Shown: in pieces, positions 2,615 to 21,467 of the stretch
Numbering within the stretch: position 1 is the stretch's first letter
Layout of the letters: every line of letters starts with the position of its first letter
Source of the DNA: Bacteroidaceae bacterium
GTDB taxonomy: Bacteria; Bacteroidota; Bacteroidia; Bacteroidales; Bacteroidaceae
Length of the DNA stretch: 64,000 nt
Reading direction: 5' to 3'
NCBI GenBank assembly: GCA_045600825.1
Contig: JAZRYP010000012.1
Span: 3,321 to 67,320, forward strand
Position numbers and translations under genes: made by a program
The notes under the pieces: model-generated
The model's input: the letters and a program-made list of their open reading frames with translations, nothing else
Databases searched by the model: none
Told to the model about the DNA's origin: nothing

Positions 2615-2660
2615 CCGCCCCGTTGGACTCATTTATCCACCGGGGCGGGTTTTTTTTTTT
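2615..2660 (+). terminator. Rho-independent terminator after the fimbrillin-like gene
   Basis: 8-bp GC stem CCGCCCCG (2615-2622) pairs with CGGGGCGG (2641-2648). An 18-nt loop separates the arms. A T11 run follows at 2650-2660. Confidence 0.55.
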
Positions 2661-3390
2661 GGGGGGGGCAACTCATTGTCATTAATTCCAGTTGTTTCTC
2701 ACAGCGGACTCTGACCGTTCCGGAATGGTTTTCCATTATCCAGAACGAGTCTGAAAAGCGGCGCACTATGTCAAGGTCGTGCGATGAGACGAGGATGGTC
2801 TTGCCTTCGTCGTGAGCCAGACGGAGCAGCAGGCGCATCAGTTCCTCCTTGCTCGGGTAGTCCAGAAAAGCCGACGGCTCATCAAGAAGTATCACCGGAG
2901 TCTGCTGAGCCAGCGCCTTGGCTATCATAACCTTCTGGCATTCGCCGTCGCTGAGTGCAGAGGCATAGCACTCTGCAAGATTTTCAATTCCAACCAGTCT
3001 CATAGCCTGAAGTACCGCGGCTTCGTCATCTGCGGAAAGTGTTCCCAACAGCCCTGTGAACGGAGCACGCCCGAATCCGACTATATCATATACAGTCAGG
3101 CGTGCGAGCTCCGGACGCTCCGTCAGAACCACGCCTATCATCCGTGAGCGTTCTGTCTGGGTCATCGCGGCTACAGTGGCCGTCTTTGTTCCAAAGCCGA
3201 CCGTAACACTGCCGGCCAACGGTTTCTGGAAGCCGCCGATTGTGCGGAGCAAGGTGGATTTGCCTATTCCGTTCACACCCACGAGGCACACCAGGGAACC
3301 ATCGGCAGTCTCAGCGCACAGGTTTTCAGCCACAGGCGTACTACGTTTGCCCGACAGATAGCCTATTGACAGATTATCAAGCCGTATCAT
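2629..3390 (-). CDS. ABC transporter ATP-binding protein (FepC/BtuD-like), no permease or binding protein adjacent
   Basis: Walker A GVNGIGKST, signature LSDGECQKV, Walker B ILLDEPSAFLD, H-loop SSHD. ATG start lies 4 nt after the STAS gene stop. Confidence 0.85.
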   Translation of the reverse strand: MIRLDNLSIGYLSGKRSTPVAENLCAETADGSLVCLVGVNGIGKSTLLRTIGGFQKPLAGSVTVGFGTKTATVAAMTQTERSRMIGVVLTERPELARLTVYDIVGFGRAPFTGLLGTLSADDEAAVLQAMRLVGIENLAECYASALSDGECQKVMIAKALAQQTPVILLDEPSAFLDYPSKEELMRLLLRLAHDEGKTILVSSHDLDIVRRFSDSFWIMENHSGTVRVRCEKQLELMTMSCPPQKKKPAPVDK

Positions 3391-3394
3391 TGTT

Positions 3395-3706
3395 TCAAGA
3401 CGGATTCTTAGCCTTGATGTCGAGTTTTGAGTCTATGTTTGTCATCTTGAAAATGCTCATCACCTGGGGGCAGACATTTATGATTGAAAATGATGCGCCT
3501 AGTGACAAGGACTTTTTGTTAGCCAGCAGGACCTGTCTGAGACCTGCGGAAGCCATATATTCCACAAGATCAAAATCCAGAATCAGAGAGCCGGCCTCGG
3601 TTACGGACTCGACCGCATCGCCAAGTTCAGGAGATGAAGCGGTATCAAGCCAACCCTCCGGCTTGATTATTACAGTACCATTCTCAACAGTCTTTGTGAT
3701 TTGCAT
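3395..3706 (-). CDS. STAS-domain anti-sigma-factor-antagonist-like protein (SpoIIAA/RsbV family)
   Basis: 103 aa with the typical STAS layout (VIIKPEGWLD.., LILDFDLVEYMASAGL with a conserved Ser, FSIINVCPQVMSIFKMT). Start lies 1 nt after the upstream gene stop. Confidence 0.8.
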   Translation of the reverse strand: MQITKTVENGTVIIKPEGWLDTASSPELGDAVESVTEAGSLILDFDLVEYMASAGLRQVLLANKKSLSLGASFSIINVCPQVMSIFKMTNIDSKLDIKAKNPS

Positions 3707-3707
3707 A

Positions 3708-5690
3708 TTATTGTTTCATTAATGTTTTTGAAATTGTCAGGATATTCTTTCCATCGGTATATTCATAGTCAACCGAATCAGCGACAGTGAACGCAATAAA
3801 CCTTCCGAGCCCGCCTACCCTCGTATCAATGTCATACTCGTCTGTCGATGGCATATTCTTTCTGGGATCAAACTGACGGCCTCCGTCAACGAAGCGCAAT
3901 ACCGCCTGATTGGAATATTCCAGTGAGAAAAGTATCTTCTCCCCCTCGGGAACCTTACCGTCGAATGCGTATGAGCATATATTCACGAAACATTCCTCGG
4001 CGGCTACGCACAAGTCCAGTTTGAATTTGTCCGGCATACCGCTGTCCATTATCAGGGACTTTATTTTCTGGAATTCCCTGATATCATAATCAAGTGCTAT
4101 AGGAGCATTATCGCAAGCCATCAGCGACAGCATGGTAATATCGTCGTTCTGTTCTGCATTTCCGACAAAGGCTCTCACGGCATCATACACACGCCGCGCC
4201 GGATTAGAAACACCGAACGATGCCGCCAGCACATTCTCCAGCCTTTCAGTCCCGAAGAACTCACCTTTCTCATTTGCAGCCTCGTTGACGCCATCGGTAT
4301 AGAGCAGAAGGGTGTCACCCACATTCATCGGCACGGACACATCGGTATATTGTTCATCAGGAAATAGTCCAAGAGGAGAACCCGGAGTACCATCCAGCCG
4401 AATAAGCCTGTTACTTATTATATATGGCTGGTTGTGGCCGGCATTGGCATAAGTGACAATATGATTTTCAGAATCGTATATGGCTATGAACGCTGTCACG
4501 AACATCATTTTTGGGTTTTCCTCGGACAATGTGGAATTGACATTGCCAAGTATGCTGGCCGGACTGTGTCCAAGTCTGGCAAACTGACGGATAAGAGTCA
4601 GCGTAACCGCCATAAACATCGAGGCCGACATTCCCTTGCCTGATACATCGGCCACCACTGCCATTGTGTGGTTGTCGTCAATACGGATGTAGTCATACAG
4701 ATCACCTCCGATATATTTGGCAGGTTTCATTCCTGAATGAATACGGCAGTTCCCGATCAGGGCCTCTCTTGCCGGCAGAAGTCCGTTCTGGATTGACGCG
4801 GCAATGTCAATCTCCGCACTTTGACGTTCCTGTTCACGGCTCAGTTTCTCATTGTCCGTCATATAGCGGTCAATATCGTCAGACATACGGTTGAAGGCCT
4901 CAGAAATCATAGCGAACTCATAATATCCTTTCTCGTTCAGTCTTACCTTTGACCGCTGTCCTCCCTTCATATAGTCCTCTATAGCCTTACTGATATTCTT
5001 AGCAGGAAGTGATGCTTTACGTGATATAAGCAGATGGAAGATTGCTATTGCCAACGCGATAATCACGAAAAAGACAATGGCAACTGTGATTATTCTGCTC
5101 TGAATCTGGGATTTTATCTCATCATTCGATACGGCACATCCCAGAATCACCTTGTTTCCGAATGCGTCCTTTACAAGATACTCAATCTCCACATCAGACG
5201 GGACAAGCGCAGCATCCAGAACCGCAAATGCCATCTCGCCGTTCCATAGCGCAAGTTCATCGTCAGTAAGTTTATAATTAACCACGCATCCCACTATCGT
5301 GTCCCCTCGGTAAGCATTGAATTTCCCTGCAAGTTTCTCATCACAGGAGAATGAAAGTAGCGTAATGGTACCATTCTCCACATCCGGCGCGTAGAGATAT
5401 ACATAATCCACATTGTACCACTTGCAGAAATAATCGCCTATAAAATCCGCATCACTGCTGTAATTAAGATCTATCGGAATATGCCTCTGCTCACTCTCGT
5501 AGCACATCATATCGCCATATACGGACAGCAGCATCTTCGCATATCTCTGACTGTTTTCCATTACATTCTGTGATACGACCCTGTAGGAAAAAGACATAAT
5601 GATGATTGCACAGGCAGCCATCAGCAAGGCCATTCTTCCAGTAAGACTTATAGCTATGGAACTATTTTTGTACTTTTCCTTTTTCTTCAC
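3708..5690 (-). CDS. Membrane sensor: HAMP - SpoIIE/PP2C phosphatase - RsbW/SpoIIAB-like GHKL kinase fusion
   Basis: Two TM helices flank a ~160-aa extracytoplasmic segment. PP2C motifs are DVSGKGMSASMF and LLLYTDGVNEA. The C-terminal ATPase-like module has AAEECFVNICSYAF, VDGGRQFDP and VGGLGRFI. The ORF opens with GTG at 5690. The first ATG is at 5633. Confidence 0.8.
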   Translation of the reverse strand: MKKKEKYKNSSIAISLTGRMALLMAACAIIIMSFSYRVVSQNVMENSQRYAKMLLSVYGDMMCYESEQRHIPIDLNYSSDADFIGDYFCKWYNVDYVYLYAPDVENGTITLLSFSCDEKLAGKFNAYRGDTIVGCVVNYKLTDDELALWNGEMAFAVLDAALVPSDVEIEYLVKDAFGNKVILGCAVSNDEIKSQIQSRIITVAIVFFVIIALAIAIFHLLISRKASLPAKNISKAIEDYMKGGQRSKVRLNEKGYYEFAMISEAFNRMSDDIDRYMTDNEKLSREQERQSAEIDIAASIQNGLLPAREALIGNCRIHSGMKPAKYIGGDLYDYIRIDDNHTMAVVADVSGKGMSASMFMAVTLTLIRQFARLGHSPASILGNVNSTLSEENPKMMFVTAFIAIYDSENHIVTYANAGHNQPYIISNRLIRLDGTPGSPLGLFPDEQYTDVSVPMNVGDTLLLYTDGVNEAANEKGEFFGTERLENVLAASFGVSNPARRVYDAVRAFVGNAEQNDDITMLSLMACDNAPIALDYDIREFQKIKSLIMDSGMPDKFKLDLCVAAEECFVNICSYAFDGKVPEGEKILFSLEYSNQAVLRFVDGGRQFDPRKNMPSTDEYDIDTRVGGLGRFIAFTVADSVDYEYTDGKNILTISKTLMKQ

Positions 5691-5726
5691 GCTACGGATT
5701 TGTCTGAATTCTCTTTCAAAACTACT

Positions 5727-7100
5727 CTAATTATCTGAGTTTCGCAAACCCGCAATGCGCGGAATAAGGAAAAGCGGGCTGAGACCCGGAGTCCTCCTCC
5801 TGATTACGCAGACCGGTATCAGCAGCAGAAGCGCAGACATCAGCTGACCTGCGGCAAAGCCGAGCCAGGGATTCAGAACCGTGTAACGGAGCGATATTTC
5901 CGAGAACAGCCAGAATCCGAAGAACGGAAGGATGGCCTGGACCACAGAAAGGAACAGTGCAAGATTATTGCGGGAGTAAATCTGATACACGGGAACGATA
6001 TTGCCTGTCAGCGTATGCAGGATTATCTGTATCGTGAAAGCCGGAATTGCAGCTACGGCAACGGAAATATTGCCGATATCCTCTACTCCGAGCAGCATTG
6101 TAATCTGTCGCGGAAAGGCAATGGTCAATGCTGAGAACACGGCCAGACTGACAAACAGGAACCTGTATGCCTTGCGTACCAGTCTGCGTATGCCGGCGGT
6201 ATCGTCACGTCCCTTCAGTATAGCTCCTATCGGCTGGATTGTGCGGTACGTTCCGTTCAGGAAAATGGTGGAGAACACCAGCAGCTGCATACAGACTGCA
6301 TACGCCACAAGTCCGCTGTCACCGAAATAACGGCTGCAGACTATATTGTTACAGGCAAACTGTACAGAGAGCAGGATTGAGCTGATGAACAGGGGCAGTC
6401 CATACGCTACGATAGGACGGACATCTGATTTGCGGACATTTACTGTCAGTCTCAGCGTACCGGCTTTCCGGAAATGCGGAAGCACCAGCAATATGCAGAC
6501 TATGTACATAATGCAGGTGGCAAGTGCAGCACCTGTTATTCCCCATCCGAGATATTTCATAAAGACGACATCCAGAACGAGATTCACGATGTTGCTTACT
6601 GTCACAGCAAAAGAGGCGCGTTTCGGCTCACCATCAACAGTGACATAAAAATCGACAGCCGTCATCAGCATCATAGGCACTGCCGAGAGCAGCATCACCC
6701 TCAGAAAATCACGCGCCAGAGGCATTACGGTCTCGGACTTGCAGAGCATACTGACAAGCGGTCCGAGAAAAGCCGTTCCAACCAGTGATATCAGCAACGC
6801 GACTGATACGGTCATTCCCATAGAAAGCGAGAAAATCCGGTTCGCACCCTCACAGTCCTTACGGCCTATTGCCATACCGACAAGCATAGTACCACCGCTG
6901 ACAAAGAACACAGACAGTGAGAAGATGGCCTGAAGCACCGGCCTGCATACATTGACAGCGGCCAGACCATTGTCGCCGACAAAATTGCCGACCAGGGAGG
7001 CATCCACTATATTGGCTACCTGAACGGCGGCTATGGTCAGAATTGAGGCAGACAGATAGCTGCCGAACATTCTGTCAACATCCGATGTGCTGTTCTCCAT
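5727..7100 (-). CDS. MATE-family efflux transporter
   Basis: 457 aa, about 12 predicted TM helices, MATE-like repeats (NIVDASLVGNFVG, GLAAVNV). The start codon overlaps the upstream stop (TGATG at 7098-7102). Confidence 0.8.
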   Translation of the reverse strand: MENSTSDVDRMFGSYLSASILTIAAVQVANIVDASLVGNFVGDNGLAAVNVCRPVLQAIFSLSVFFVSGGTMLVGMAIGRKDCEGANRIFSLSMGMTVSVALLISLVGTAFLGPLVSMLCKSETVMPLARDFLRVMLLSAVPMMLMTAVDFYVTVDGEPKRASFAVTVSNIVNLVLDVVFMKYLGWGITGAALATCIMYIVCILLVLPHFRKAGTLRLTVNVRKSDVRPIVAYGLPLFISSILLSVQFACNNIVCSRYFGDSGLVAYAVCMQLLVFSTIFLNGTYRTIQPIGAILKGRDDTAGIRRLVRKAYRFLFVSLAVFSALTIAFPRQITMLLGVEDIGNISVAVAAIPAFTIQIILHTLTGNIVPVYQIYSRNNLALFLSVVQAILPFFGFWLFSEISLRYTVLNPWLGFAAGQLMSALLLLIPVCVIRRRTPGLSPLFLIPRIAGLRNSDN

Positions 7101-8377
7101 CAGTCAACCCTGTGATCAATCACCTTCTTTATCTTGCCTGTTATCGGGTTGCGTGGCAGACTGCCGAGCGGCACAAGGCACACCTCATAGCGGTTGAAGA
7201 AACCTATCTTCAAACCGCCGGCAATGTCCTGGATATGCTGTGCCAGCACCTCTTCCAGACGATGCGCGGCATCAGCGTGCTTCTCAGGCTCGTCACACTC
7301 CACGTTCACGACCAGATCCATACGCGCGCCGGCCACATCGGCAAGCTCAATCTGGAAATTCAGGCTCAGTTCCTCCACCTCGCTCACGGCACGTTCAAAC
7401 TCGCCCACCGTGACGTATGCGCCCCCAAGCTTGAAATCCTCACCGGCACGGCCTGCCAGACGATACTTCCTGTCGGCACTGCCACAGGCGCAAGTATCGT
7501 CAATCCACGATGCAAGATCGCCTATGCGGTATCGGATAATAGGATGGAACTCACGTCTGAGACTGGTGACAAGAATCTCGCCGGTCTCACCGGGGCCGAC
7601 AGGTTCCATAGTGACAGGATTGACAATCTCTATCAGCTGGAAATCTGTGAGCGTGTGATATTCTCCGAATCCGCAGTCTGTACACTGATAGCCCATAATT
7701 CCACAGTCGCCACTCGTATATGCCAGAGGCTTTATCTCCTTGACGCCCAGCCATTTCCTGACGTGAGCCTCGGCCTCGCGGCTCATCTGTTCTCCGGCAT
7801 AGCAGGCCATACGCAAACCTTCAAACGGTTTATTGTCCTTCTTTGCTATGTCGGCCATCAGCACGAAAAATGTAGGAAGTGACAGGATTACCGTAGGCTT
7901 ATACTCCCGGCAAAGTTTGTATGCCTCGTCTATGCCGATATTCGCAGAAATGGGCAGATGTACACAGCCGCTGCGCATTATCATCTCGTGAGCGCCGATG
8001 AACGACGGCCAGAGATGGCCTGCAACGAACATATTCGCCACTATATCGTCCTTACTTACACCAAGCCTCATAAAAGCCTCGGCCTGTTTCTGACAGAAAT
8101 CGTTCCACTCGCTCTGCCTCAGGACTATGGTACGCGCTACCCCACTTGAGCCGCCGGTACTGCTCACGATGGCATCTTCCAGAACTCCTGTAAACATTGT
8201 CGTGGTACGCGGATACGTGTTATCGTAAAGCTCGGTACGCTCCAATACCGGAATCTTCCGCCACTCCTCCCAGGTGGATGGAATCTTACAGCCACTGTAT
8301 TTCTGCTTGTAATATGGTGCCTTGCAGGCTGTCTGAAAGATTTCCACCGCACGTTTCAGTTGATTGTCTTCTATCAT
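7100..8377 (-). CDS. Phenylacetate-CoA ligase / coenzyme F390 synthetase-like adenylate-forming enzyme
   Basis: PaaK-like N-terminus (APYYKQKY..IPSTWEEWRKIPVLERTEL). P-loop-like SSTGGSSGVART. GEILVTSL and IIRYRIGDLA motifs. Confidence 0.75.
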   Translation of the reverse strand: MIEDNQLKRAVEIFQTACKAPYYKQKYSGCKIPSTWEEWRKIPVLERTELYDNTYPRTTTMFTGVLEDAIVSSTGGSSGVARTIVLRQSEWNDFCQKQAEAFMRLGVSKDDIVANMFVAGHLWPSFIGAHEMIMRSGCVHLPISANIGIDEAYKLCREYKPTVILSLPTFFVLMADIAKKDNKPFEGLRMACYAGEQMSREAEAHVRKWLGVKEIKPLAYTSGDCGIMGYQCTDCGFGEYHTLTDFQLIEIVNPVTMEPVGPGETGEILVTSLRREFHPIIRYRIGDLASWIDDTCACGSADRKYRLAGRAGEDFKLGGAYVTVGEFERAVSEVEELSLNFQIELADVAGARMDLVVNVECDEPEKHADAAHRLEEVLAQHIQDIAGGLKIGFFNRYEVCLVPLGSLPRNPITGKIKKVIDHRVD

Positions 8378-8390
8378 AGCAATACGTATG

Positions 8391-9734
8391 TCAAATTACG
8401 AATCTGTGTTTGAGATTGCCCTGCAGGACTGATACATCCTCTGTACGTAACGTGACAAGAGGCCTGTCGCAGGACTTGGAGAGGTTGTGGTACTTGAAGC
8501 TGAACTCCGCACTGTGACCGCAGAGATACTCCAGCAGCAAAGTCTGGAACCGGTCACTGTCGGAATGTCTCTCCCCACGGGTATAGACAGTGAATTCAAA
8601 GGTGCTGATATCATTCTCCACTGCCTCGTGAACAGAAAACAGTCCACCATAGCCCTCAGCCTCAGGCAGAGACAGCAGCCACTGCTGTATATCACCGATC
8701 ATCAGGTTTGTTCCATAGAATATCACGGCATTGTCGGCCCGGCCGAATACATACATCCATTGCTCGGGCATAGCGTCCAGCAGGTCATCAGGCACGATGC
8801 CTCTCAAGGACTCCCTATCCATCAGTCCGCCACGATCCTTCGTGTCATAACGAACAAGCGGAATGAACTGATCCTTAGTCACGACAATGTGTCCGCCAAT
8901 AATCTCAATCAGGCATTTGTCATTCAGACACAGCATCATCGGCGTATCCTCCGTACCGAATATCTCCACACTCCTGTCGGGATGCGACGCGAACCATTTG
9001 CGGACTTTGATTGAAGCGACAGTCTCGTACGACACATCGCCGGTATCCGCACTTCCATAGCCTGTCCATAGCACGCTTGTGGAATCGGCAGGATGACCGT
9101 ATTCCACGCAGATATGCTCACGCAGAGATTCCGTGAAATATTCGCCAACGACCGGGAAAAATGTAGTGCCCGGTTTCAGTCGGATTCCGCTATCCTGTAT
9201 CAGTGCTGTTATAATGGGAATGTTCGATGGATTCGTAATGACAAGCAGTTGGTCATACCGCTCGTGATATGCCTTTATCACGCTCACCGCCTCACGGAGA
9301 TCCAGTCCGGGAGTGGCAATTGTGAAATGATAATTGCCCGACAGAGCGATATTGCGTATCGCCGCCGCTATCTGCATCCCACCTATCCACATTCCGAATG
9401 CCAGACATTCCAGACACAAGGTCTTCCTGCTGTCAATGTTATAATGGTCAATGAACATCATCTCAATGCTCTCCATATATGCCTTCTCGTCACACGGACG
9501 CTTGGGCCAGAACACGGCTCCGGACCTGGAGAAACCGCTGCTCGCACCTATCAGATGGATGCGGTCCATATCACCGGGACGGCAAAGCTGTTCCATAGGA
9601 TATGACAGCAGATAATCCTGCTTGCTGATTATCGGCAGATCCTCAAACTTATCAGGGAAAGCCTTCCCTACCTTATCCTTATAGGCTCCGACCTGTTGCC
9701 AGATTTCGTGAGCCATTGATTTTCCATCTATCAT
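8391..9734 (-). CDS. Second, divergent PaaK/F390-synthetase-like adenylate-forming enzyme
   Basis: DLPIISKQDYL, GASSGFSRSG and LVRYDTKDRG are present in the same order as in the neighbouring ligase. ATG lies 3 nt after the NRPS stop. Confidence 0.65.
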   Translation of the reverse strand: MIDGKSMAHEIWQQVGAYKDKVGKAFPDKFEDLPIISKQDYLLSYPMEQLCRPGDMDRIHLIGASSGFSRSGAVFWPKRPCDEKAYMESIEMMFIDHYNIDSRKTLCLECLAFGMWIGGMQIAAAIRNIALSGNYHFTIATPGLDLREAVSVIKAYHERYDQLLVITNPSNIPIITALIQDSGIRLKPGTTFFPVVGEYFTESLREHICVEYGHPADSTSVLWTGYGSADTGDVSYETVASIKVRKWFASHPDRSVEIFGTEDTPMMLCLNDKCLIEIIGGHIVVTKDQFIPLVRYDTKDRGGLMDRESLRGIVPDDLLDAMPEQWMYVFGRADNAVIFYGTNLMIGDIQQWLLSLPEAEGYGGLFSVHEAVENDISTFEFTVYTRGERHSDSDRFQTLLLEYLCGHSAEFSFKYHNLSKSCDRPLVTLRTEDVSVLQGNLKHRFVI

Positions 9735-9737
9735 ATT

Positions 9738-12700
9738 CTATCGGTTATAATCGTCATCAAAGAATTCAAGAGCCTGAATCTGTATCAGGAACTGTTCCAT
9801 ATAATCCCAGGTAGTTGTGTTCCACTGGAAGCCCAGATGATACAGCACCTCGGTCGTATAATCGGACGCATAGCTGTTGAATACAGCCGTCTTGCCGTCA
9901 CTCCGCGAGGTGTATGCCAGCATCGACTGCAGAATATCAGCATTCCTAGGATTCTTCAGAGCCTCCTGAAGTATCCGTTCAAATTCACTGCCGCCAACCG
10001 CCCTTATAGTGTGTCCCATCCTGTTCATACGATCCACCAGATCCAGATACAGAGCCCTGTGTGGATTGAACACATTGAAAATCACACAATCGGAATTCGT
10101 ACCTGCCAGCAGACATATAGCACGTGCGGTCTCATCAATCGGCGAAAACTCAGTCTTGGCCATAAGACCACTGTACGGAATGGCGCCAAGTGTCTGGTAA
10201 GCCTTCAATCGTCCCATAAACGAGTTGCTGTGGAAGTTTACCTGGAATTCGCCGTCGCTGCTTCGCGGAGCAAGGTTGCCCAGGCGCATAATCTTGGCTT
10301 TCAAGCCTTTCTCCGCAACAGCTTCAAGAATCGCCCTCTCGGCAAGGAACTTTGAACGGAGATATTTGTTGTCCAACACCTGTCCGAAATACAACTCATT
10401 CTCCAGCAGGATATGGGGCATCGGATGCGGGTTGTCGCTCAATGTCACGCCAGACACGCTTCCCGTAGAGGTGTGGATGAACGTAGCACCAGTCCTGAGA
10501 CAAAGGTCAATACAGTTCAGTGCGCCGCCGATGTTGATATCCTCAATATCCGTACCTGCCGAGAAATGCTTCACATTCGCGGCACAGTTTATTACAGTGT
10601 CAATGTGGATGTCCCCCAGTTCAATAGGCTTCGTGACATCGCCCTCAAATGCAAACAGGCGCTTTTCCACCTCTTCCTGATAAATATCGTTGAAATAGTA
10701 GAACAGCATAGTCTGAATTCTGGTCATTGCGCTCGCATTCTTCTGTCCGCGCACAAGACACCAGATGGCGGGAATATTCTTATCCTCTAACAGTTCCCGA
10801 AGCACGTGAATGCCCAGATATCCGGTAGCGCCCGTAAGCAGCACTGTACCGAGAGGACGCACTGACGTATCCTTGAAATACGTACTGCTGTTGTTCCTGC
10901 TGACAATACCGGCAAACCGACCGTAATCGTAGTTGGAAATCTCCGTATCATCTTCAGGAAGTTCGTTCGAAATCACCGCGCCACCATTGACAAAAGCTGC
11001 CATAGCCGCAGGTGTCGGATTGTCAAATATGTCCTTGTAGGCAAGCCTGTATCCGCCACGACTTATTGCCACAGACAGACGCATCGCGACAAGTGAAGTA
11101 CCGCCAATCTCGAAGAAATTGTCCTTTGCACCGACCTTTTCAAGTTTCAGCACCTGCGCAATCGCATCGCAGAAGAACTTCTCAAGACTATTCTTCGGTG
11201 CCACATACCCGCGCTCTGCCACTGTCGGCTCAGGAAGCTTTTTCATATCAATCTTACCGGAAGGCGAGACAGGCATTTCCTTCAGTTCCATCAGAATGTT
11301 CGGCACCATATATGGAGTAAGCCGCTCCGACATACCTTCCTTTATGGAATCCGGAGTACAAGGACCATCAGCTGTAAACCAGGCCACAAGCTTATCCTGC
11401 TGGCCTACTTTCCGTATCGCCACCACACACTGGTGAACACCGCTCTGCTCGCCCATCACGGTCTCTATTTCGCCAAGCTCTATGCGGAGACCGTTCAGTT
11501 TCACCTGACTGTCAGTACGGCCAAGTATCATCACCTGACCATTGTCTGTCCATTTGGCGTAATCGCCGGACTTGTAGGCACGTGTTCCGTTCCACCCGAT
11601 AAATGCAGCGGCGGTCTTGTCCGGCAGATTATAATAGCCGGGACATACTCCAACACCACTTATGAGCAGTTCACCCATCACACCTGCCGGAAGCTCATTA
11701 CCGTCAGAATCTATGATATATTCGGTGAAACCGGGCAACGGAGAGCCGACAGATACAGTATCGCAGCCGTTCAGTCTGGCGGCATTACAGCAGATAGTAA
11801 TCTCCGTAGGACCATACATATTGTAAATCTCCGCGTCCGTCATTGCCTGAAGACGCTTCATAAGAGAGGCAGGAAGCTTCTCACCGCCCATCTGTATCAC
11901 CTTGCAGTCCCTGATGACATCGCGGTACTCCTGCATTTCCATATAGGTGTCAATTCGCGACGGAGTACCACTCAGTACATCCGCGCCGGTCTTACGGTAC
12001 AGTTCGGCCAGAGCAAGGCTGTCGGTAGTGGTCTTCTCATCGGCAAACACAAGCATTTTACCGTTGAAAAGGGCTGTTCCGTATTCAAGGATTGACAGGT
12101 CGAAAGATACCGTAGCACTGCAAACCACGCCACTTGACCTGGTGGCAACAGCATACGTATGCGGATTCGCCGGATGCGGAGTCAGATAATTGACAATGCC
12201 GCGATGTTGCAGCATTACACCCTTAGGAGTGCCTGTAGAACCACTGGTGTAAATCAGGTACGCCAGGTCATCGGGTGTCACATCAATATTCAGAGGCTCC
12301 GTGGAGCAGGAGGCTGCAGCCTTACGCACATTTTCTATATCAAGAGCACGGTCTGCATAATCGCCCACTTTATCAGACGTAGTCAGCACAAAACGGCCTT
12401 CGGAATTCTCCAGTATGAAGGCTATTCTCTCGGCCGGATATTCCGGATCCATCGGTATATACGCCGCACCCGATTTCATAACGGCATAGACGGCAACAAG
12501 GAAATCGCTTGTACGCGGCAACAGGAGCACTACCCTGTCGCCCTTGGCAAGTCCCCTCTCAGCCAATGCGCGCGCCATACGGCAAGCCTCTCGGTCAAAC
12601 TCCCTGTAGGTCAAGGTACGGTCTGATGCCACGACCGCGACAGCATCGGGAGTTTCACGTGCCCAACGTGCGATGCCATCGTGAAATGTACCGACCGTCG

Positions 12701-15700
12701 ATACAGAATCTGCAACTTTATGAAATGGTTTCAGGACTTCCTTCTGACCATCACTGAGAATGCTCACGCTACGCATAGGTGCACTCCCGTTATCTGTCAT
12801 ATTGATTGCAGCCGTAACAATGCTGTCAGCAAGCGACTGCATCAGTCCACGGCTGTACAGCGAATCATCGTATTGGATGACAAGTGAAGGCTTACCGCCA
12901 TAAACCTCGATGAATACGCCAATCTTGAACTTAGGTTCTGTCAGTCCGAATGACCCGAACCCAACCTTTTCGCCGCCAATCTCTGCATCGGAGATAATAC
13001 CCAACTGATATGCGTATGTGATTGCCGCCGAATAGCCGTAATCTGCAGCTATTATGGAGAACGGATAGTTCTCGTGAGCCACCGTACCACGCAGGACTTC
13101 AGCCGCAGCGGCAATATACTCTTTCACACTACCCTTACCCTGGCGTATGCAGACAGGAAGCGTATTCACGAACATACCTACCGTCGATTCTATGTCGAGA
13201 TTCTGACGTCCGCTGCTGACCGTAGAGATATAGACATCCTGGGCATTTGCATAGCGTCCTATCGTGTAGGCCGCAGCCGCAAGCCAAAAGCCTGCCGCAG
13301 TCACACCTTCAGAGCGCCAGTCGAGCAGACGCTGCGGAAGTTCCATAGCCACCTCGGCCTGCCGTCCGGGACCTTCGGACGATATATCGGAAGCTATCTC
13401 GGTGACATTCTCATAATCACGCAACTGCCCGGCAAAGAACTCTTTATGTTCCTTGAAGCTGTCGCTGGCTGCAAATGACTTCTGATCCCGGCAGAAATTA
13501 AGATAGGTGTATCTCTCGTCACTTACAGAGCCCCCGCCCAGCAGAGTTACCAGTTCCCTGAAGATGATATCGTACGAGCCTCCGTCGCACACCAGATGAT
13601 GTATGTCGAGCAGAAGCACCGGTCCGCAAGCGTCAGACGCCATTATCTCACCTCTCCAGAGCGTATCATTCTCCAAATTGAAAGGACGGACAAAACGCTG
13701 TTTTTCTTCGTCGGCATTATCCGTCAGGACAACAGGTATCTCAGCCTTGCGGGTCTTGGGAACGACCTGCACTATCTCACCGTCCTCGTCCGCCTGGAAC
13801 TTGGCGAACAGTATCGGATGAGCCTCAAGGACACTCTCCGCAGCCTTTTTCAAAGCTTCCGCAGTCACTGACGCAGGGAAACGCACTTCCATAGGGATAT
13901 TATAGATTGTGCTATCAGGATGCGCCAGACAGTCGGCATATACTCCCTGCTGCGAGAATGACAGGCGTGAGATACCACTACTGATGGTTTCACCGGCATT
14001 TTCCGCATTGCCCGACGGTTCATTGCCCCTGTTCAGAAGAAACTCCAGAATGACATTCTCCACATCGGTTATGCTGATGCCTGACAAAAGTTCGGAGCTG
14101 CCTATCTTCACGCCGAATTCCTTGTAAATCTGAGCCGCAAGACGCATTGACAGTATTGACGACAGTCCGCAATATGCAAGCGGCACGCTCAGACCCACCT
14201 CGCTTCCTACGAGTCCTGCGGTCATTTCCTGCAATCTCTTCTCCAGCACATTCGGCTCACGGTTATCCTGCACCGTATCGGATGCCCCATCTGCCGGCGC
14301 GACAGGCTCCGGCAGTTTCTTCCGGTCAACCTTCTGATTCACATTCAGAGGAATGGCATCAATCTGCATAGTCACGGCCGGCACCATATAAGGCGGTTTC
14401 TGCGAGAGAATGAACTTATTTAACGCCGCAATATCAATATTTCCATCACTGACCACGTATGCGGCAATGAACTTGCCACCGCTCGCCAGGTCAAATGCCT
14501 GTACTGTCACATCCCTGATGCCGTCGAACTGGCGGATGACAGCCTCCACCTCCTTTAATTCTATTCTGAATCCACGTATCTTCACCTGTCCGTCGTTCCG
14601 GCCGACGAACTCGATGTTGCCATCGGCACGGTAGCGCACCACATCGCCGGAACGGTACGATTTTTCTCCATAAACGCCGAATACATCAGCAGTTTTCTCC
14701 GGAGAGTTAAGATACCCGCGCGACACCTGTTCACCCAAGATAATCAGTTCACCTGCCGCCCCCACCGGAAGATCCTTGCCGAAACGGTTCACGATTCTGC
14801 AATTAAGCGTATCAAGCGGCTTTCCTATGGGAATATTAGGCTCGGATTTCAGCACGGGATATATGGTAGAGAATACCGTACATTCCGTAGGCCCATATAC
14901 ATTGTAGAATTTATAGCCTGTCGGAGGATTGATTGATGCAAGTTTCTCGCCGCCGATTGACAGATGACGCAGCGTAGGATGCTCCGGAAAGAGTGTCGCA
15001 AACTGATAGCCCACCTGAGTTGTAATGAAGCTGTGCGTCACTCCGCAATCTATAAAATATGCGTTCAATGCGTCAAAATCCAGACGGATGTCCTCCGGCA
15101 CAATGGCGCAGGCGGCACCGGTAGTAAGAGGTGCATACATATCCATCATATCGGCATCAAAGCCGAATGATGCGTATGCGGCCACACAGTCACCTGGATT
15201 CAGGCTGTAATAACGCCTGTACCAATAGCAGAACGTTACCAGATTATGATGTCCTATGACCACGCCCTTAGGAATACCTGTGGAGCCGGAAGTATAGAGC
15301 AGTACCGCCGCATCAGACGGCTTCACCACGTGTCCGCCAAAGGATTTCATATCACCGGCTATACCGGCATCCGGGTCTGTCAGCATCACTTCTCCGTCAA
15401 AGCTGACCAGTTCCCTCAATTCAGAATCCACAATGAGAAGCGAGGCTCCGCTGTCCTTCACCATAAAGTCAAGCCTCTCCTTAGGATAACTCGGATCGAG
15501 CGGCTGATATGCCGCACCGGCCTTCATCGCCGCAAGAGTATATATAGGGAAGTTCTCGGATCTTCCCTGCATAATCGACACCACCGGTATGCCCAGTTCC
15601 CTGTTCTGCTGACCTTCGATTCTATCGGCAATTTCTGCAGCAAGACGGTCGCTGCGTTCATCCAGTTCACGGTATGTCAGGCGCCTGTCACGGAATATCA

Positions 15701-17075
15701 CGGCGGTATTGTCCGGCCAGGCCTTTGCGCAGGCACGCAGCAGTGAAACTACGGTATCGTTTTCGTCCGCCTTTTCCGGAGTCCTGCTGAATGCGGCTAT
15801 CTCATCGGTCTGCACTGCATCACACAACTCTATCTGCGAAACATTCTCCGATACCAGAAGTCCTGACAGCACATTGTCAAAAGTTCTCGCGAATTCACCG
15901 ATAATTCCGTCGGAATACTGCCTTGCCGAATACTGCATCATACACTTGAAACTTCCATCGGCATCCTGGAACACATTGACCAGTATCGCATAGCCCGGAC
16001 GGCAGGAACGTATGTCCTCAGTCTCCTGCAATCTGCCACCAAGATCTATGCGGTAATCGTACAGTTTGCCCTGAAAAGCGAAACATATCTGCGGTGTCAA
16101 TGACAGATCCGTACAGCAGTCGCCGAATGAATATAGCGCACGGCTTCTGGCACCGCGTATCTGCTCTGATGTCTGCTTCAGCAATTCCGCGATATTCCTG
16201 TCCTCCCTGAAATTCTGATAGACAGGGAAAGTCTTGACCATCATTCCCAATGTATGCGATGTCTCACTACCATTGCGTCCGTGATGTATGGTCGCAAACA
16301 ATGCCCCGGAATCACCGGTGAAATTGGACAATGTGTATCCGAATGCCACCGTGAACGGAATGCTTATGCCCACCCCATTCTCCTTGCTGAATGACGATAC
16401 CGCCTCGTATTGTACGTCCATCGGGAATGTCACCGACTTCCACTGCGTATCTTCCGGCACAGTCTCATCGGACACGTCCGGTATAGGCGCTGTGGCCGCA
16501 TCGGTAGCCGCACCGAACTCACCGGCATACCATTCCTTAGCATCAGCAAACTCCTGACTTCCGCGGGATTTCTCCTCCTGCACGGCCAGAATGAAACTGT
16601 CAGTCTGCTCCAGCTCCAGTTTCTCTCCGTTGTAGGCCTTGCCCAAGTCCTCCTTGAACACCGTAAATGACACTCCGTCAAACACAATATGGTGGAAACA
16701 CAGTCCGAAGATGTTACCCTCGGCAGTACGGCACAGACCGAAACGGAACAGTGGCTCTGAGAAGATGTCGAACCTGCGCTGCATCTCCGTCTTGAGCGTT
16801 TCCTTATCCTTGTATTCCCTGACGGCACTCCCGGCAGTCTGCGCCTTCACCGGTGGCACTATGCAAATCCCGCCATCGTCCGCATGCTCTATACTTGAAC
16901 ACACGTACGGATGATTGTTCAGCACCGCCGCCACCGCTTCCTTGAGTCTGTCAATATCCACATCAGCCCCAAGCCTGTACAGCAGGCATATATTGTAGTC
17001 ACTGTTACCCACAGCCTTAGACTCCGAGAAATAAATTCCCAGCTGCGTCTTCGTAATTGGAAATGACTTCTTCAT
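9738..17075 (-). CDS. Dimodular non-ribosomal peptide synthetase, C-A-T-C-A-T-R (terminal thioester reductase)
   Basis: 2445 aa. C domains: HHIVFDG and HHLVCDG. A domains: LLYTSGSTGIPKG and LIYTSGSTGTPKG, YGPTE twice, GRNDGQVKIRGFRIEL and GRTDSQVKLNGLRIEL. Carrier serines sit in CGLSS and EIGGTSL. The C-terminal part has Rossmann LLTGATGYLGIH plus YLRSK (YxxxK). Confidence 0.92.
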   Translation of the reverse strand: MKKSFPITKTQLGIYFSESKAVGNSDYNICLLYRLGADVDIDRLKEAVAAVLNNHPYVCSSIEHADDGGICIVPPVKAQTAGSAVREYKDKETLKTEMQRRFDIFSEPLFRFGLCRTAEGNIFGLCFHHIVFDGVSFTVFKEDLGKAYNGEKLELEQTDSFILAVQEEKSRGSQEFADAKEWYAGEFGAATDAATAPIPDVSDETVPEDTQWKSVTFPMDVQYEAVSSFSKENGVGISIPFTVAFGYTLSNFTGDSGALFATIHHGRNGSETSHTLGMMVKTFPVYQNFREDRNIAELLKQTSEQIRGARSRALYSFGDCCTDLSLTPQICFAFQGKLYDYRIDLGGRLQETEDIRSCRPGYAILVNVFQDADGSFKCMMQYSARQYSDGIIGEFARTFDNVLSGLLVSENVSQIELCDAVQTDEIAAFSRTPEKADENDTVVSLLRACAKAWPDNTAVIFRDRRLTYRELDERSDRLAAEIADRIEGQQNRELGIPVVSIMQGRSENFPIYTLAAMKAGAAYQPLDPSYPKERLDFMVKDSGASLLIVDSELRELVSFDGEVMLTDPDAGIAGDMKSFGGHVVKPSDAAVLLYTSGSTGIPKGVVIGHHNLVTFCYWYRRYYSLNPGDCVAAYASFGFDADMMDMYAPLTTGAACAIVPEDIRLDFDALNAYFIDCGVTHSFITTQVGYQFATLFPEHPTLRHLSIGGEKLASINPPTGYKFYNVYGPTECTVFSTIYPVLKSEPNIPIGKPLDTLNCRIVNRFGKDLPVGAAGELIILGEQVSRGYLNSPEKTADVFGVYGEKSYRSGDVVRYRADGNIEFVGRNDGQVKIRGFRIELKEVEAVIRQFDGIRDVTVQAFDLASGGKFIAAYVVSDGNIDIAALNKFILSQKPPYMVPAVTMQIDAIPLNVNQKVDRKKLPEPVAPADGASDTVQDNREPNVLEKRLQEMTAGLVGSEVGLSVPLAYCGLSSILSMRLAAQIYKEFGVKIGSSELLSGISITDVENVILEFLLNRGNEPSGNAENAGETISSGISRLSFSQQGVYADCLAHPDSTIYNIPMEVRFPASVTAEALKKAAESVLEAHPILFAKFQADEDGEIVQVVPKTRKAEIPVVLTDNADEEKQRFVRPFNLENDTLWRGEIMASDACGPVLLLDIHHLVCDGGSYDIIFRELVTLLGGGSVSDERYTYLNFCRDQKSFAASDSFKEHKEFFAGQLRDYENVTEIASDISSEGPGRQAEVAMELPQRLLDWRSEGVTAAGFWLAAAAYTIGRYANAQDVYISTVSSGRQNLDIESTVGMFVNTLPVCIRQGKGSVKEYIAAAAEVLRGTVAHENYPFSIIAADYGYSAAITYAYQLGIISDAEIGGEKVGFGSFGLTEPKFKIGVFIEVYGGKPSLVIQYDDSLYSRGLMQSLADSIVTAAINMTDNGSAPMRSVSILSDGQKEVLKPFHKVADSVSTVGTFHDGIARWARETPDAVAVVASDRTLTYREFDREACRMARALAERGLAKGDRVVLLLPRTSDFLVAVYAVMKSGAAYIPMDPEYPAERIAFILENSEGRFVLTTSDKVGDYADRALDIENVRKAAASCSTEPLNIDVTPDDLAYLIYTSGSTGTPKGVMLQHRGIVNYLTPHPANPHTYAVATRSSGVVCSATVSFDLSILEYGTALFNGKMLVFADEKTTTDSLALAELYRKTGADVLSGTPSRIDTYMEMQEYRDVIRDCKVIQMGGEKLPASLMKRLQAMTDAEIYNMYGPTEITICCNAARLNGCDTVSVGSPLPGFTEYIIDSDGNELPAGVMGELLISGVGVCPGYYNLPDKTAAAFIGWNGTRAYKSGDYAKWTDNGQVMILGRTDSQVKLNGLRIELGEIETVMGEQSGVHQCVVAIRKVGQQDKLVAWFTADGPCTPDSIKEGMSERLTPYMVPNILMELKEMPVSPSGKIDMKKLPEPTVAERGYVAPKNSLEKFFCDAIAQVLKLEKVGAKDNFFEIGGTSLVAMRLSVAISRGGYRLAYKDIFDNPTPAAMAAFVNGGAVISNELPEDDTEISNYDYGRFAGIVSRNNSSTYFKDTSVRPLGTVLLTGATGYLGIHVLRELLEDKNIPAIWCLVRGQKNASAMTRIQTMLFYYFNDIYQEEVEKRLFAFEGDVTKPIELGDIHIDTVINCAANVKHFSAGTDIEDINIGGALNCIDLCLRTGATFIHTSTGSVSGVTLSDNPHPMPHILLENELYFGQVLDNKYLRSKFLAERAILEAVAEKGLKAKIMRLGNLAPRSSDGEFQVNFHSNSFMGRLKAYQTLGAIPYSGLMAKTEFSPIDETARAICLLAGTNSDCVIFNVFNPHRALYLDLVDRMNRMGHTIRAVGGSEFERILQEALKNPRNADILQSMLAYTSRSDGKTAVFNSYASDYTTEVLYHLGFQWNTTTWDYMEQFLIQIQALEFFDDDYNR

Positions 17076-17137
17076 ATTTCTGTTTTTATGCGAATATACA
17101 ACTAATTTCCGGACAATGGATTTATCTGTTTTTGATA

Positions 17138-17145
17138 TATCTTTG
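17138..17145 (+). promoter_or_regulatory. Candidate Bacteroidetes -7 box (TATCTTTG) upstream of the esterase gene
   Basis: Matches TAnnTTTG, 36 nt upstream of the ATG at 17182. No well-spaced -33 TTTG was found. Confidence 0.3.
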
Positions 17146-17160
17146 GGGACGGATTAATAA

Positions 17161-18294
<1,134 letters not shown>

Positions 18295-18303
18295 TCTGCA
18301 CTG

Positions 18304-20610
18304 TCAGAAACGCACGTCAACGGCATTGCCATCGTACTCTATGCTCTTGGTACGGATTGTCTTGCCGTCAATGTAGGTGATATTGAAGCGGCGGGTTTTC
18401 AGCATTCCCTGATACTCGCCGCTGCGTTTTCCTATCGTCAGTTTTGAGCCCCTCAGAGAGAATTCTATTGTCGTGTATTTTCCCTGCTCGTAATTATAGT
18501 TGTCACCCTCATCCTCGTAGAGTGTGAAATTGCCGTTTTCACCGGCAAATACGCGGATTTCAAGGTCATCCCACGGCTTTTCAGAAGCATACTGCACGTC
18601 CGGTCCAACCGGCAGGATCGAGCCTGCCTTGACAAACAGCGGACAATGGTCAATAGAGGCATCGACAGTCACATCCTGACCACCGCTATACAGACGGTTA
18701 TCATAGTAATCGTACCATTTCGTACCCGACGGCAGATACACATCCATCGTTTTGGCCTCAGTCCAGTCGTACTTCTCATCACTCCAGCGGCGTTCCTCGG
18801 TCGTGTAGAGTGCATGAGTAACAGGGGCTACAAGGAGCGAACGTCCGAACATAAACTCATCGTTCATGTCCCAGACCTTGCGGTCAGCCTTGAAATCCAT
18901 CATCAGCGCACGCATAAAGCTGTCATCGTTGCTTGATACCTGCCAGGCGGTACTGTAGATGTAAGGCAGCAGCGAATAGCGCAGCCTGATGGCCTTCCCA
19001 ATGGCATCGTATATCGGCTCCCCCTTCTGACCGAACTCCCAAATCTCGCGACGGGAGGACTCTCCGTGACTGCGCATCATAGGATTGAACACGCCGAACT
19101 GCAGCCAGCGCACATAAAGCTCCTGAAACAGAGGATTACGCGAACAGGTCTGCGTCTGGCCGTACCTGTTGTAGCCGCTCGGGAAAAAACCGCCTATGTC
19201 ACTGTTCACGTATGGACTGCCGGTAAGGGTATAATTCAGACAGAGCGGAATCTGCGCACGGAAGTCATTCCAGGTGGATTGCACATCACCGCTCCAGGTG
19301 TTGGCACCGGTACGCTGCTGGCCGGTAAAGTACGAACGGGTCAGTATGAACACACGCTTGTCGCTGCTCACGGCACGCTGATGGTCATAGACACCCTCCA
19401 CACACATCAGCGGATAGATATTGCGCACACTGCGGAACGAACCCATCGCCGTAGGCTGATCCAGGTCGCTTTCCTTGAAATCGTGATGGTCCGGGTCCGT
19501 AGAATCCATCCACCACGCATCAATGCCGAGATCGTAGAGTTTGGACAGATATTTCCAGTAGATGGCACGCGCCTCATCGCTATACGCATCGTAGCACAAT
19601 ACCCCCGACGGATAATCCATACGCGGAGGCCAGTATTCAGCCAGTCCGCTGTTCGGCCAGGTGAGGAAATCCAGCAGCAGATTCCTGTCGTTCAATTCCC
19701 GGAACTGCTTGGTCTGCGGACCGAACGACTGCCAGATGGATATTGATATATGGGCATTCATCGCGTGAGTCTGTTTCACCATATCCTTCGCATCGGGGAA
19801 CTCCGCATTCAGGAACTCCATTGCGTTCCACAGATAGTTGTTGCCCCAATATTGCCAATCCTGAATGATACCGTCCAACGGCACACCGACGGCACGATAG
19901 CCCTTCACCACATCGAGCAGTTCCTTCTGGCTCTTGTAACGCTCACGGCTCTGGTGGAATCCGTAGGTCCACATCGGAATCATTGGCACCTTGCCAGTGA
20001 GCCAGCGCAGACCTGCCACCACCCCGTCGGCATCGCCCCCATAGATGAAATAGTAGTCTATCGCCTCAGCCACCTGCGAGCTGATGTTCAGCACCCTGCC
20101 GTCATCGCTCCACTCCGTCGGCGAATAATTGTCAACGAAAATTCCGTAGCCTTTTATTGACTGGAAGCAATTGGCGTAATCCTCCGTATTTGACTGTATC
20201 ATAGTGCGGTTCTCGCCACGCTGGCTCATCTTGCCGTTCTGCAGCATACCCACGCCGTATATCGGCTCATCGGCATCGAGAATCCAGCTCTGGCCGGCCT
20301 TCCAGGCACCTTTGTCTATACCGGACTCTATCGGTTCGAAGTTGCTCGGGCCCTCCTGAAGCAGCACATGTCCCTTGGCATCCATAAATGTGACAACGCC
20401 ACCCCGGCCGATTGCAACCTTTATCTCCGGTCTCTCCACATCCTGCGGCTGAGCCGTGACAGACACGCTCGGCGACATACGGAACTCTCCTACCGTCTTC
20501 TCTATCCTTACTATACGGGGCGTATAGTACGACACCCTGACCTGAACGTCCTGCGCCGCCACGACCAATGCCATCACCGCCGCGACAATGAATACAGACA
20601 ATCTACGCAT
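18304..20610 (-). CDS. Glycoside hydrolase family 31 (alpha-glucosidase/alpha-xylosidase-like)
   Basis: Signal peptide. GH31 nucleophile region GIDAWWMDSTDPD. Acid/base region TWSGDVQSTW. NPMMRSHG is present. Confidence 0.85.
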   Translation of the reverse strand: MRRLSVFIVAAVMALVVAAQDVQVRVSYYTPRIVRIEKTVGEFRMSPSVSVTAQPQDVERPEIKVAIGRGGVVTFMDAKGHVLLQEGPSNFEPIESGIDKGAWKAGQSWILDADEPIYGVGMLQNGKMSQRGENRTMIQSNTEDYANCFQSIKGYGIFVDNYSPTEWSDDGRVLNISSQVAEAIDYYFIYGGDADGVVAGLRWLTGKVPMIPMWTYGFHQSRERYKSQKELLDVVKGYRAVGVPLDGIIQDWQYWGNNYLWNAMEFLNAEFPDAKDMVKQTHAMNAHISISIWQSFGPQTKQFRELNDRNLLLDFLTWPNSGLAEYWPPRMDYPSGVLCYDAYSDEARAIYWKYLSKLYDLGIDAWWMDSTDPDHHDFKESDLDQPTAMGSFRSVRNIYPLMCVEGVYDHQRAVSSDKRVFILTRSYFTGQQRTGANTWSGDVQSTWNDFRAQIPLCLNYTLTGSPYVNSDIGGFFPSGYNRYGQTQTCSRNPLFQELYVRWLQFGVFNPMMRSHGESSRREIWEFGQKGEPIYDAIGKAIRLRYSLLPYIYSTAWQVSSNDDSFMRALMMDFKADRKVWDMNDEFMFGRSLLVAPVTHALYTTEERRWSDEKYDWTEAKTMDVYLPSGTKWYDYYDNRLYSGGQDVTVDASIDHCPLFVKAGSILPVGPDVQYASEKPWDDLEIRVFAGENGNFTLYEDEGDNYNYEQGKYTTIEFSLRGSKLTIGKRSGEYQGMLKTRRFNITYIDGKTIRTKSIEYDGNAVDVRF

Positions 20611-20659
20611 AATATCCGGTTGTTTTTATTACTGACGACAAACATACACAAATTGCGAG

Positions 20660-20667
20660 TATCTTTG
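20660..20667 (+). promoter_or_regulatory. Candidate -7 box (TATCTTTG) upstream of the CBM9-like lipoprotein gene
   Basis: Matches TAnnTTTG, 27 nt upstream of the ATG at 20695, in the divergent GH31/CBM9-like intergenic region. Confidence 0.3.
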
Positions 20668-20694
20668 TATTCCAAAGACAGTAATTCAGGCAAT

Positions 20695-21447: not shown

Positions 21448-21467
21448 TATCTTTACGGATTAAATGA

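Follow-up and report, generated by a model that had tools for sequence, protein, structure and literature searches.

Does an ABC ATPase encoded 4 nt behind a partner-switching gene pair belong to that switch, or does the switch serve another system? The question is raised by three co-directional open reading frames (ORFs) on the minus strand of a 64-kb window, the whole stretch of DNA analysed here, which lies on contig C12 of the metagenome-assembled genome (MAG) of a Bacteroidaceae bacterium (G000; the other G-numbers and the L-numbers below denote compared genomes and loci). They encode a 660-aa membrane sensor with phosphatase and kinase domains (3708..5690, GTG start), a 103-aa STAS protein (3395..3706) that starts 1 nt past the sensor stop codon, and a 253-aa ABC ATPase of the BtuD/FecE type (2629..3390) that starts 4 nt past the STAS stop codon. 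An initial annotation, made from the letters alone, had proposed the ATPase as a plausible output of the switch. We consider it likely that sensor and STAS protein together make up a self-contained phospho-switch of a horizontally acquired island built around a peptide-aldehyde-type nonribosomal peptide synthetase (NRPS), and that the ATPase lies outside the circuit. The earlier interpretation was right on the phospho-switch and wrong on its output, and it overlooked the neighbouring NRPS cluster, which is the partner conserved with the switch.

The sensor and its STAS partner

The ORFs, spacings and motifs that the initial annotation quoted for the three genes were all recovered in ORF calls and alignments. 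From its N-terminus, the sensor consists of a first transmembrane segment (TM1), a Cache/PDC-like periplasmic domain, a second transmembrane segment with a HAMP-like linker (TM2-HAMP), a PP2C phosphatase and an RsbW-like kinase, as drawn from Pfam, NCBIfam, alignments and AlphaFold2 (AF2) models. Two hydrophobic segments, with hydropathy windows centred at aa 20-31 and 203-219, stand on either side of a stretch of ~160 aa. TM1 (~aa 18-36; 5583..5639, minus strand as are all parts of this gene) is a hydropathy peak, and its AF2 helix (12-69) extends into the sensor domain; TM2 (~aa 199-222; 5025..5096) carries the hydropathy maximum of 3.3.

No Pfam family matched the extracytoplasmic segment between them (aa 37-198; 5097..5582). 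Modelled alone with AF2 from a 13-sequence orthologue alignment, it reached a pLDDT of 88 and a pTM of 0.81, and Foldseek matched it to the Tlp3 dCache domain, the WalK extracellular domain, KinD, DctB, DcuS and a formate-binding sCache domain, with TM-scores of ~0.5-0.6. The modelled fold suggests a single sensor domain that is Cache/PDC-like. The linker that follows TM2 (aa 223-305; 4776..5024) is predicted to form two long helices (AF2 helices 189-243 and 257-304), and among NCBIfam models those of CpxA, EnvZ and MtrB align with aa 193-290 through their TM2-HAMP region, while that of SiaA covers aa 200-523. The domain series first proposed for this protein was borne out by Pfam and hydropathy for TM1, TM2, the SpoIIE phosphatase and the GHKL module, but only in part for HAMP: the Pfam model (PF00672) is not significant for the sensor itself, whereas precomputed PF00672 matches are present in several of its homologues, and NCBIfam and AF2 also support the linker.

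The two catalytic domains are clearer. The phosphatase (aa 309-525; 4116..4766) matches Pfam SpoIIE with an E value of 3e-50 (aa 338-523), and the RsbW/SpoIIAB-like GHKL kinase (aa 537-656; 3723..4082) matches HATPase_c_2 with an E value of 1e-10 (aa 546-655). In a full-length AF2 model built from 26 homologues (pLDDT 83), TM1 continues into a long helix, after which come an alpha/beta domain, TM2, a pair of long HAMP-type helices, and the PP2C and GHKL folds. The PDB structure that matches this model best is 3ke6, the RsbU and RsbW domains of Rv1364c (E 3e-20, TMt 0.70), and the PP2C domain matches that of SiaA (6k4e) with a TMt of 0.80. A phmmer search of the PDB with the kinase domain alone returned nothing meaningful; a profile of the 26 homologues led to RsbW (6m36) and Rv1364c.

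The same 26 homologues are full-length and share 36-52% identity with the window protein; they were also aligned for their catalytic residues. The metal ligands of the PP2C domain, D330, D348 (in DVSGKG), D466 (in TDG), D516 and D517, are invariant, and S350-G353 and D466-G467 are invariant or near so. In the kinase, the residues of the N-box (E565, E566, N570), of the G1 box (D602 and G604) and of the G2 box (G626, G627, G629) are invariant as well, except that D602 is only nearly so. The ATP-binding residues on which the first reading of the C-terminal module depended are thus in place, and the protein has both the metal-binding aspartates of a PP2C and the three boxes of a GHKL serine kinase.

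The STAS protein is a single-domain member of its family (Pfam STAS E 6e-12, with a further match to STAS_2; NCBIfam TIGR00377). In the motif DS(S/A)GL, the serine that is phosphorylated in SpoIIAA (1th8) and in TM1442 corresponds to its Ser53 (codon 3548-3550), the residue that the initial annotation had placed at this position, and Ser53 is invariant in 12 of 12 STAS orthologues. The protein therefore carries a predicted phosphorylatable serine at the position of SpoIIAA Ser58. Alignments and models together support one membrane protein that bears intact-looking PP2C and RsbW-type kinase modules beside a STAS protein. Because both the ATP-binding residues of the kinase and the serine of its presumed substrate are conserved, the switch looks functional.

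Linkage to a peptide synthetase island

What the switch belongs to is best read from its neighbours in other organisms. We took the surroundings of sensor homologues from metagenomes and genomes and found 11 distinct loci with an orthologous full-length sensor (L012, L013, L014, L015, L018, L019, L020, L021, L105, L106 and L107). Their sensors are 36-53% identical to that of the window and come from Bacteroidales MAGs, Lachnospiraceae, Ruminococcus and others. Each of the 11 sensor genes is neighboured by a reductase-terminated NRPS, and each has a STAS gene beside it or elsewhere in the cluster; in none of the loci does an ABC ATPase follow the STAS gene. The gene 3' of STAS differs by locus, being a phosphopantetheinyl transferase, a SusD gene, YccF, an amylase, a chagasin-like inhibitor or unrelated convergent genes. 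The sensor-STAS-ATPase triad was seen only in the window and in one metagenome contig, L104, whose sensor is 96% identical. Because the NRPS neighbours all eleven orthologous loci and the ATPase none, we assign the sensor and the STAS protein to the NRPS island; the pair is therefore the regulatory module of a peptide-aldehyde-type NRPS island. As a separate observation, the chagasin-family cysteine-protease inhibitor (Inhibitor_I42) that directly follows STAS in a Clostridia-type locus (L107:12352-12756) is thematically near a peptide-aldehyde protease-inhibitor pathway.

In the window, the rest of the island operon (5727..17075, minus strand) continues upstream of the sensor gene with a MATE exporter (5727-7100), a PaaK-like ligase (7100-8377), a 447-aa protein without a match in Pfam or NCBIfam (8391-9734) and the NRPS itself (9738-17075), these being assigned with Pfam and NCBIfam. 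The NRPS has 2445 aa in the order condensation, adenylation, thiolation, condensation, adenylation, thiolation, reductase (C-A-T-C-A-T-R), and by its domain order it is comparable to the NRPS family of gut dipeptide aldehydes. A reductase-terminated NRPS, MatE, SpoIIE and STAS thus all lie on the minus strand within 3395-17075, the composition of an NRPS-linked PP2C/STAS/MatE cluster.

The sensor and the NRPS of the window have different nearest relatives. The NRPS most like that of the window (43-44% identity) is found in Prevotella, where it adjoins a non-orthologous dCache-PP2C-kinase sensor of 740 aa with its own STAS protein. The window cluster therefore looks like a mosaic, in which the sensor type of ~2970-aa NRPS clusters appears to be combined with the NRPS type of Prevotella clusters. 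In one Prevotella MAG (L078:8957-21166), and also in L065, L073 and L037, such an NRPS occurs with the dCache-type sensor, STAS, an Alginate_exp-like outer-membrane protein and MATE.

A candidate Bacteroidetes-type promoter, TTTG-N20-TAGTTTTG (5717..5748, minus strand), is a consensus match that overlaps the 3' end and stop codon of the MATE gene, and its -7 box, TAGTTTTG, ends 26 nt upstream of the sensor GTG. This promoter would make sensor, STAS and ATPase a sub-operon. The consensus occurs three times in the 64-kb window against 0.96 expected, a count attained by 10 of 100 shuffled sequences; of the two further matches, one is the tRNA-Lys promoter. Scans for sigma-70 promoters and terminators gave shuffle-level results only, and the sigma-70 scan is ill-suited to Bacteroidetes.

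Target of the switch and characterised relatives

We propose that a ligand would bind the periplasmic Cache/PDC-like domain and that the signal would be relayed through TM2-HAMP. It would then change the relative activity of the fused PP2C phosphatase and RsbW-like kinase, and with it the phosphorylation state of STAS Ser53. This step draws on family knowledge and on the conserved residues, with SpoIIE/RsbU-RsbW-RsbV, SiaABC, SypE-SypA and HsbR-HsbA as precedents. Unphosphorylated STAS would engage a target that is not a sigma factor, possibly a pathway protein (the NRPS or the exporter) or the kinase domain of the sensor itself. Of all the steps in the argument, this assignment of the target is the weakest. 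We favour a target within the unit over a host sigma factor because loci from two phyla have no genes in common other than those for the NRPS, the sensor and the STAS protein, and these are not accompanied by a transcription factor.

The best-surviving alternative is the classical one. The RsbW-like domain would be an anti-sigma factor that holds an unlinked sigma factor at the membrane until unphosphorylated STAS frees it and switches the NRPS operon on. Anti-sigma function is the textbook role of RsbW-type modules, and the HATPase_c_2 and RsbW matches of the kinase domain agree with it. Leahy et al. (PMC2812497) likewise assumed that such genes regulate NRPS expression. The sigma repertoire of the organism speaks against it. 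The first reading had found no sigma factor nearby, and indeed Sigma70_r2 had no match on contig C12. The genome as a whole (81% complete) encodes one primary sigma factor and seven sigma factors of the size of the extracytoplasmic function (ECF) group, and region 3 is present in the primary one only, so that neither a region-3-containing alternative sigma factor of the sigma-B/F class nor another cognate alternative target was found in this assembly or on the contig. Moreover, the NRPS-sensor-STAS unit recurs in Bacteroidales and in Clostridia, which differ in their sigma repertoires, with no sigma gene travelling along; a primary-type sigma gene lies ~0.5 kb upstream of the NRPS in L105, and in that locus only. 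We therefore regard an anti-sigma role as unlikely, and keep to a non-sigma target. The 2.1-Mb genome also harbors four SpoIIE, four STAS and four HATPase_c_2 genes (on contigs C31, C20, C51, C23 and C13), and partner switching in this organism may be generally sigma-independent.

The closest characterised relatives of the locus are Rv1364c, SiaABC, SypE-SypA and HsbR-HsbA. Rv1364c of Mycobacterium tuberculosis, an RsbU-RsbW fusion, is the best sequence-profile and fold match over both domains, and, like the window protein, it unites on a single chain a PP2C and an RsbW-type kinase whose substrate is a STAS domain. Rv1364c is cytoplasmic, starts with a PAS domain and ends with the STAS domain as part of the same chain, whereas the window protein is a TM-Cache-HAMP sensor and its STAS protein is encoded by a separate gene. 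SiaA of the Pseudomonas aeruginosa SiaABCD system has the same layout of two transmembrane segments, HAMP and PP2C. The STAS-like SiaC binds directly to a target that is not a sigma factor (PMC7647112; PMC8457831). SiaABCD differs in having its kinase, SiaB, as a protein of its own, Thr68 as acceptor and, as output, a diguanylate cyclase whose gene belongs to the operon; in the window the kinase is fused to the sensor, and no GGDEF gene is found among the neighbours (ATPase, MATE, ligases and NRPS). In SypE-SypA of Vibrio fischeri and HsbR-HsbA of P. aeruginosa, an RsbW-like kinase and a PP2C in one protein act on a single-domain STAS protein, again with non-sigma outputs (PMC10120452; PMC7647112). 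SypE and HsbR are cytoplasmic and take their input through a receiver domain, and the domain order of SypE is reversed, whereas the window sensor has a periplasmic Cache-like input.

The gene pairing itself has been noticed before. In Methanobrevibacter ruminantium M1, serine phosphatases, an anti-sigma antagonist and MatE surround the NRPS mru0068 (Leahy et al. 2010, PMC2812497). This NRPS is dimodular (C-A-T-C-A-T), with a terminal domain that the legend of Figure S8 gives as a thioester reductase, and the authors suggested sensing, regulation and export for its surroundings (mru0066-0071; PMC2812497). There the organism is an archaeon and the phosphatases are separate genes, whereas in the window PP2C and kinase are fused in a Cache-like sensor, and the Bacteroidales island that encodes it has two further ligase-like genes. 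Full-text searches for SpoIIE or STAS together with NRPS found no paper on mechanism.

The ABC ATPase and its position behind the STAS gene

If the switch serves the NRPS island, the ATPase needs another explanation. It matches Pfam ABC_tran with an E value of 3e-23, and its motifs are intact: Walker A GVNGIGKST, the signature LSDGECQ (LSDGERQ in orthologues), Walker B ILLDEP and the H-loop SSHD. In a phmmer search of the PDB, FhuC was the best single-domain match, but all ABC nucleotide-binding domains score alike there; because these scores do not discriminate, the subfamily was taken from NCBIfam and synteny. The top NCBIfam matches are FecE, a corrinoid ATPase, F420-0, AztA and FepC, and MlaF is not among the best 25. 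Its highest score, 145 bits, falls well below the cut-offs of 375 (FecE) and 537 (corrinoid), which makes this a subfamily-level and not an equivalog assignment.

The distribution of the ATPase differs from that of the switch. ATPase orthologues (48-72% identity, one per genome) are present in 21 of 24 genomes of the same genus, and a sensor orthologue is present in none of the 24 (E <= 1e-60) and in none of 400 other genomes of the order (E <= 1e-100); 21 congeners thus carry the ATPase without sensor or STAS. On this distribution, the ATPase is a gene of the chromosomal backbone and not cargo of the island.

Its usual partner is a FecCD permease. In 10 of the 12 other families of the order in which an ATPase homologue was found, that homologue lies directly 3' of a FecCD gene on the same strand (G025, G026, G028, G030, G031, G034, G035, G036, G038 and G040; the exceptions are G032 and G039), or in 9 of the 10 families where both genes were found on ordinary contigs. 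In G039, the ATPase stands at the start of a contig and no FecCD was detected. A complete BtuF-FecCD-ATPase operon is found in eight congeners; in a ninth (G008), the two genes stand at the ends of contigs. Cobalamin riboswitches occur near such systems in congeners (L110:1944-2146 and 17331-17542; L112:10771-10970). In the window's own genome, FecCD is encoded exactly once (C20:25852-26877), where no ATPase gene adjoins it, and a single Peripla_BP_2 (BtuF-like) gene lies 6 kb from it; the window ATPase is the only FecE-type ATPase in the assembly. The initial annotation was correct that the window holds no permease or binding-protein gene, since the only FecCD and Peripla_BP_2 genes of the genome lie on contig C20, and it probably erred in treating the ATPase as an orphan. 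This genomic partnership is that of a type II importer, and it is strongly indicated that the ATPase is the predicted BtuD/FecE-type subunit serving the C20 FecCD and the BtuF-like protein. The family, the FecCD adjacency in relatives and the riboswitches near congener systems are shared with the BtuCD-F/FecCDE importers; in this clade of the genus, by contrast, the three genes are unlinked and the ATPase lies behind an NRPS-island operon.

How the ATPase came to lie there can be read from two congeners (G016 and G004). In both, it lies 132 bp from, and is transcribed away from, the orthologue of the PfkB gene found at 21468-22553 of the window, and an S-methyltransferase block flanks it on the side away from PfkB. 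In the window, the DNA between the starts of the ATPase and PfkB genes (3391..21467, a tract without strand) measures 18,077 bp and contains the NRPS operon together with esterase, GH31 and CBM9 genes. The ATPase became the gene after STAS because these ~18 kb, island included, now fill its upstream intergenic region, and the 4-nt spacing is the result of DNA gain at the promoter region of a backbone gene, not the sign of a shared circuit. Only short, chance-level repeats were found in a search for target-site duplications or flanking repeats around the ~18-kb insert. The site is variable: in G017, ~6 kb of unrelated genes occupy it. Across the genus (the window compared with L102, L103 and L099) the PfkB-ATPase interval measures 132 bp, ~6 kb or ~18 kb, and it may be an insertion hot spot.

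The same sensor-STAS-ATPase junction is found in L104, an independently assembled metagenome contig, with protein identities to the window of 96% for the sensor, 100% for STAS and 80% for the ATPase. At the DNA level, 3251-4900 of the window is 98-100% identical to L104, a tract of 1.65 kb that covers the C-terminal half of the sensor, STAS and the first ~47 codons of the ATPase; identity is 77-94% upstream of it and 69-83% downstream, from ~140 nt into the ATPase gene. This pattern indicates a recent recombination tract across the junction of island and backbone, with a putative breakpoint near ATPase codon 47. Because identity drops inside the ATPase gene, this gene would have provided the homologous flank for the exchange of island DNA. 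The ATPase is probably co-transcribed with sensor and STAS, which we read from the spacing as a side effect on expression and not as a signalling link. Since its native 132-bp upstream region has been lost, its expression is now probably tied to the sensor-STAS transcript.

These results bear directly on the proposal that the switch acts on the ATPase, which STAS would bind and regulate in the way that MlaB controls MlaF. The tight spacing on one strand and the second occurrence in L104 would fit it, and in an unrelated dCache-PP2C-kinase and STAS family a GlnQ-type ATPase gene follows directly in two Bacteroidales loci and at a distance of 2 kb in a third, so that a STAS-ABC link is conceivable in general. 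Yet the triad occurs in none of the 11 orthologous loci, the ATPase is a backbone gene present in 21 of 24 congeners without sensor or STAS, and the adjacency arose by DNA gain at its promoter region. The likeness to MlaF-MlaB ends at a STAS gene next to an ABC ATPase gene: the ATPase is FecE/BtuD-like, no MlaE or MlaD is nearby, the pairing is not conserved, and a matching unpaired FecCD permease exists elsewhere in the genome. Regulation of the ATPase by STAS is therefore very improbable.

The dCache family just mentioned deserves a description of its own. Its loci (L035:11-3786; L108, from G026:C54, 2830-11285; L109, from G035:C77, 74-7772) encode a dCache-HAMP-PP2C-kinase sensor of ~780 aa and a STAS protein. 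Their ATPases, directly next in two loci and 2 kb away in the third, are of the GlnQ/TcyN type, with 375-389 aa and a C-terminal extension, and in L108 the next gene is a fusion of a four-fold SBP_bac_3 with a permease. This family may be a genuine partner switch tied to an amino-acid ABC importer.

The weakest alternative, that the junction or the surrounding contig is a chimera of co-occurring strains, as a 74-contig MAG with broken synteny downstream of the ATPase might suggest, is barely credible: L104, from another sequencing run in Logan, has the same junction and runs on into the expected S-methyltransferase, and because it was assembled independently we take the STAS-ATPase junction as real and confine doubt to the region past the ATPase stop codon. 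At that end, the ATPase runs 17 residues past the end of all its orthologues, through a T11-G8 homopolymer (window 2629-2680). Synteny with relatives breaks at the end of the ATPase, and the region 3' of its stop codon, to position 1 of the window, is unlike all relatives. The expected S-methyltransferase block is found at the end of contig C10 (C10:9485-11283), beside a multi-copy Rpn-like gene (PD-(D/E)XK, transposase-like). Immediately past the ATPase stop codon, the sequence has either been rearranged or been joined in the assembly of the MAG.

Several points weigh against an ATPase outside the circuit and a switch confined to the island. The NCBIfam scores of the ATPase fall far under every equivalog cut-off and leave its substrate between corrinoid and iron chelate, and no cobalamin riboswitch was found near the BtuF and FecCD genes of its own genome (L010). 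At 81% completeness, the unassembled part might still encode another FecE-type ATPase or a sigma factor of the sigma-B/F type. The 4-nt gap makes co-transcription of STAS and ATPase likely, and the junction is kept in two lineages, within a near-identical tract; a functional STAS-ATPase link could conceivably have been acquired secondarily.

With these points in view, a self-contained switch of the NRPS island is the reading we retain. It removes a tempting inference, in which tight spacing (4 nt) is taken as evidence of a shared circuit. The locus belongs to the NRPS-linked sigma-less partner switches, a class that has already been noticed and is mechanistically unstudied. The pairing of genes was already present in a genome paper of 2010 (PMC2812497), and the locus adds support to it and not a new kind of system. 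It is a further independent case in which a peptide-aldehyde-type NRPS cluster of gut and rumen microbes has its own sigma-less phospho-switch, and what is new in this case is the Cache-like input domain and the mosaic cargo. More tentatively, and with considerable doubt, one could imagine a portable module shared across phyla, in which STAS would control the synthetase or exporter post-translationally in response to an extracellular ligand, and which in this genome would also have captured the transcription of the sole BtuD-type ATPase. To our knowledge, post-translational control by a STAS protein has been described for no NRPS. If this were true, corrinoid or iron-chelate uptake would be tied to the same promoter as the switch operon. 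The target of the switch bears on when gut bacteria make or release protease-inhibiting peptide aldehydes.

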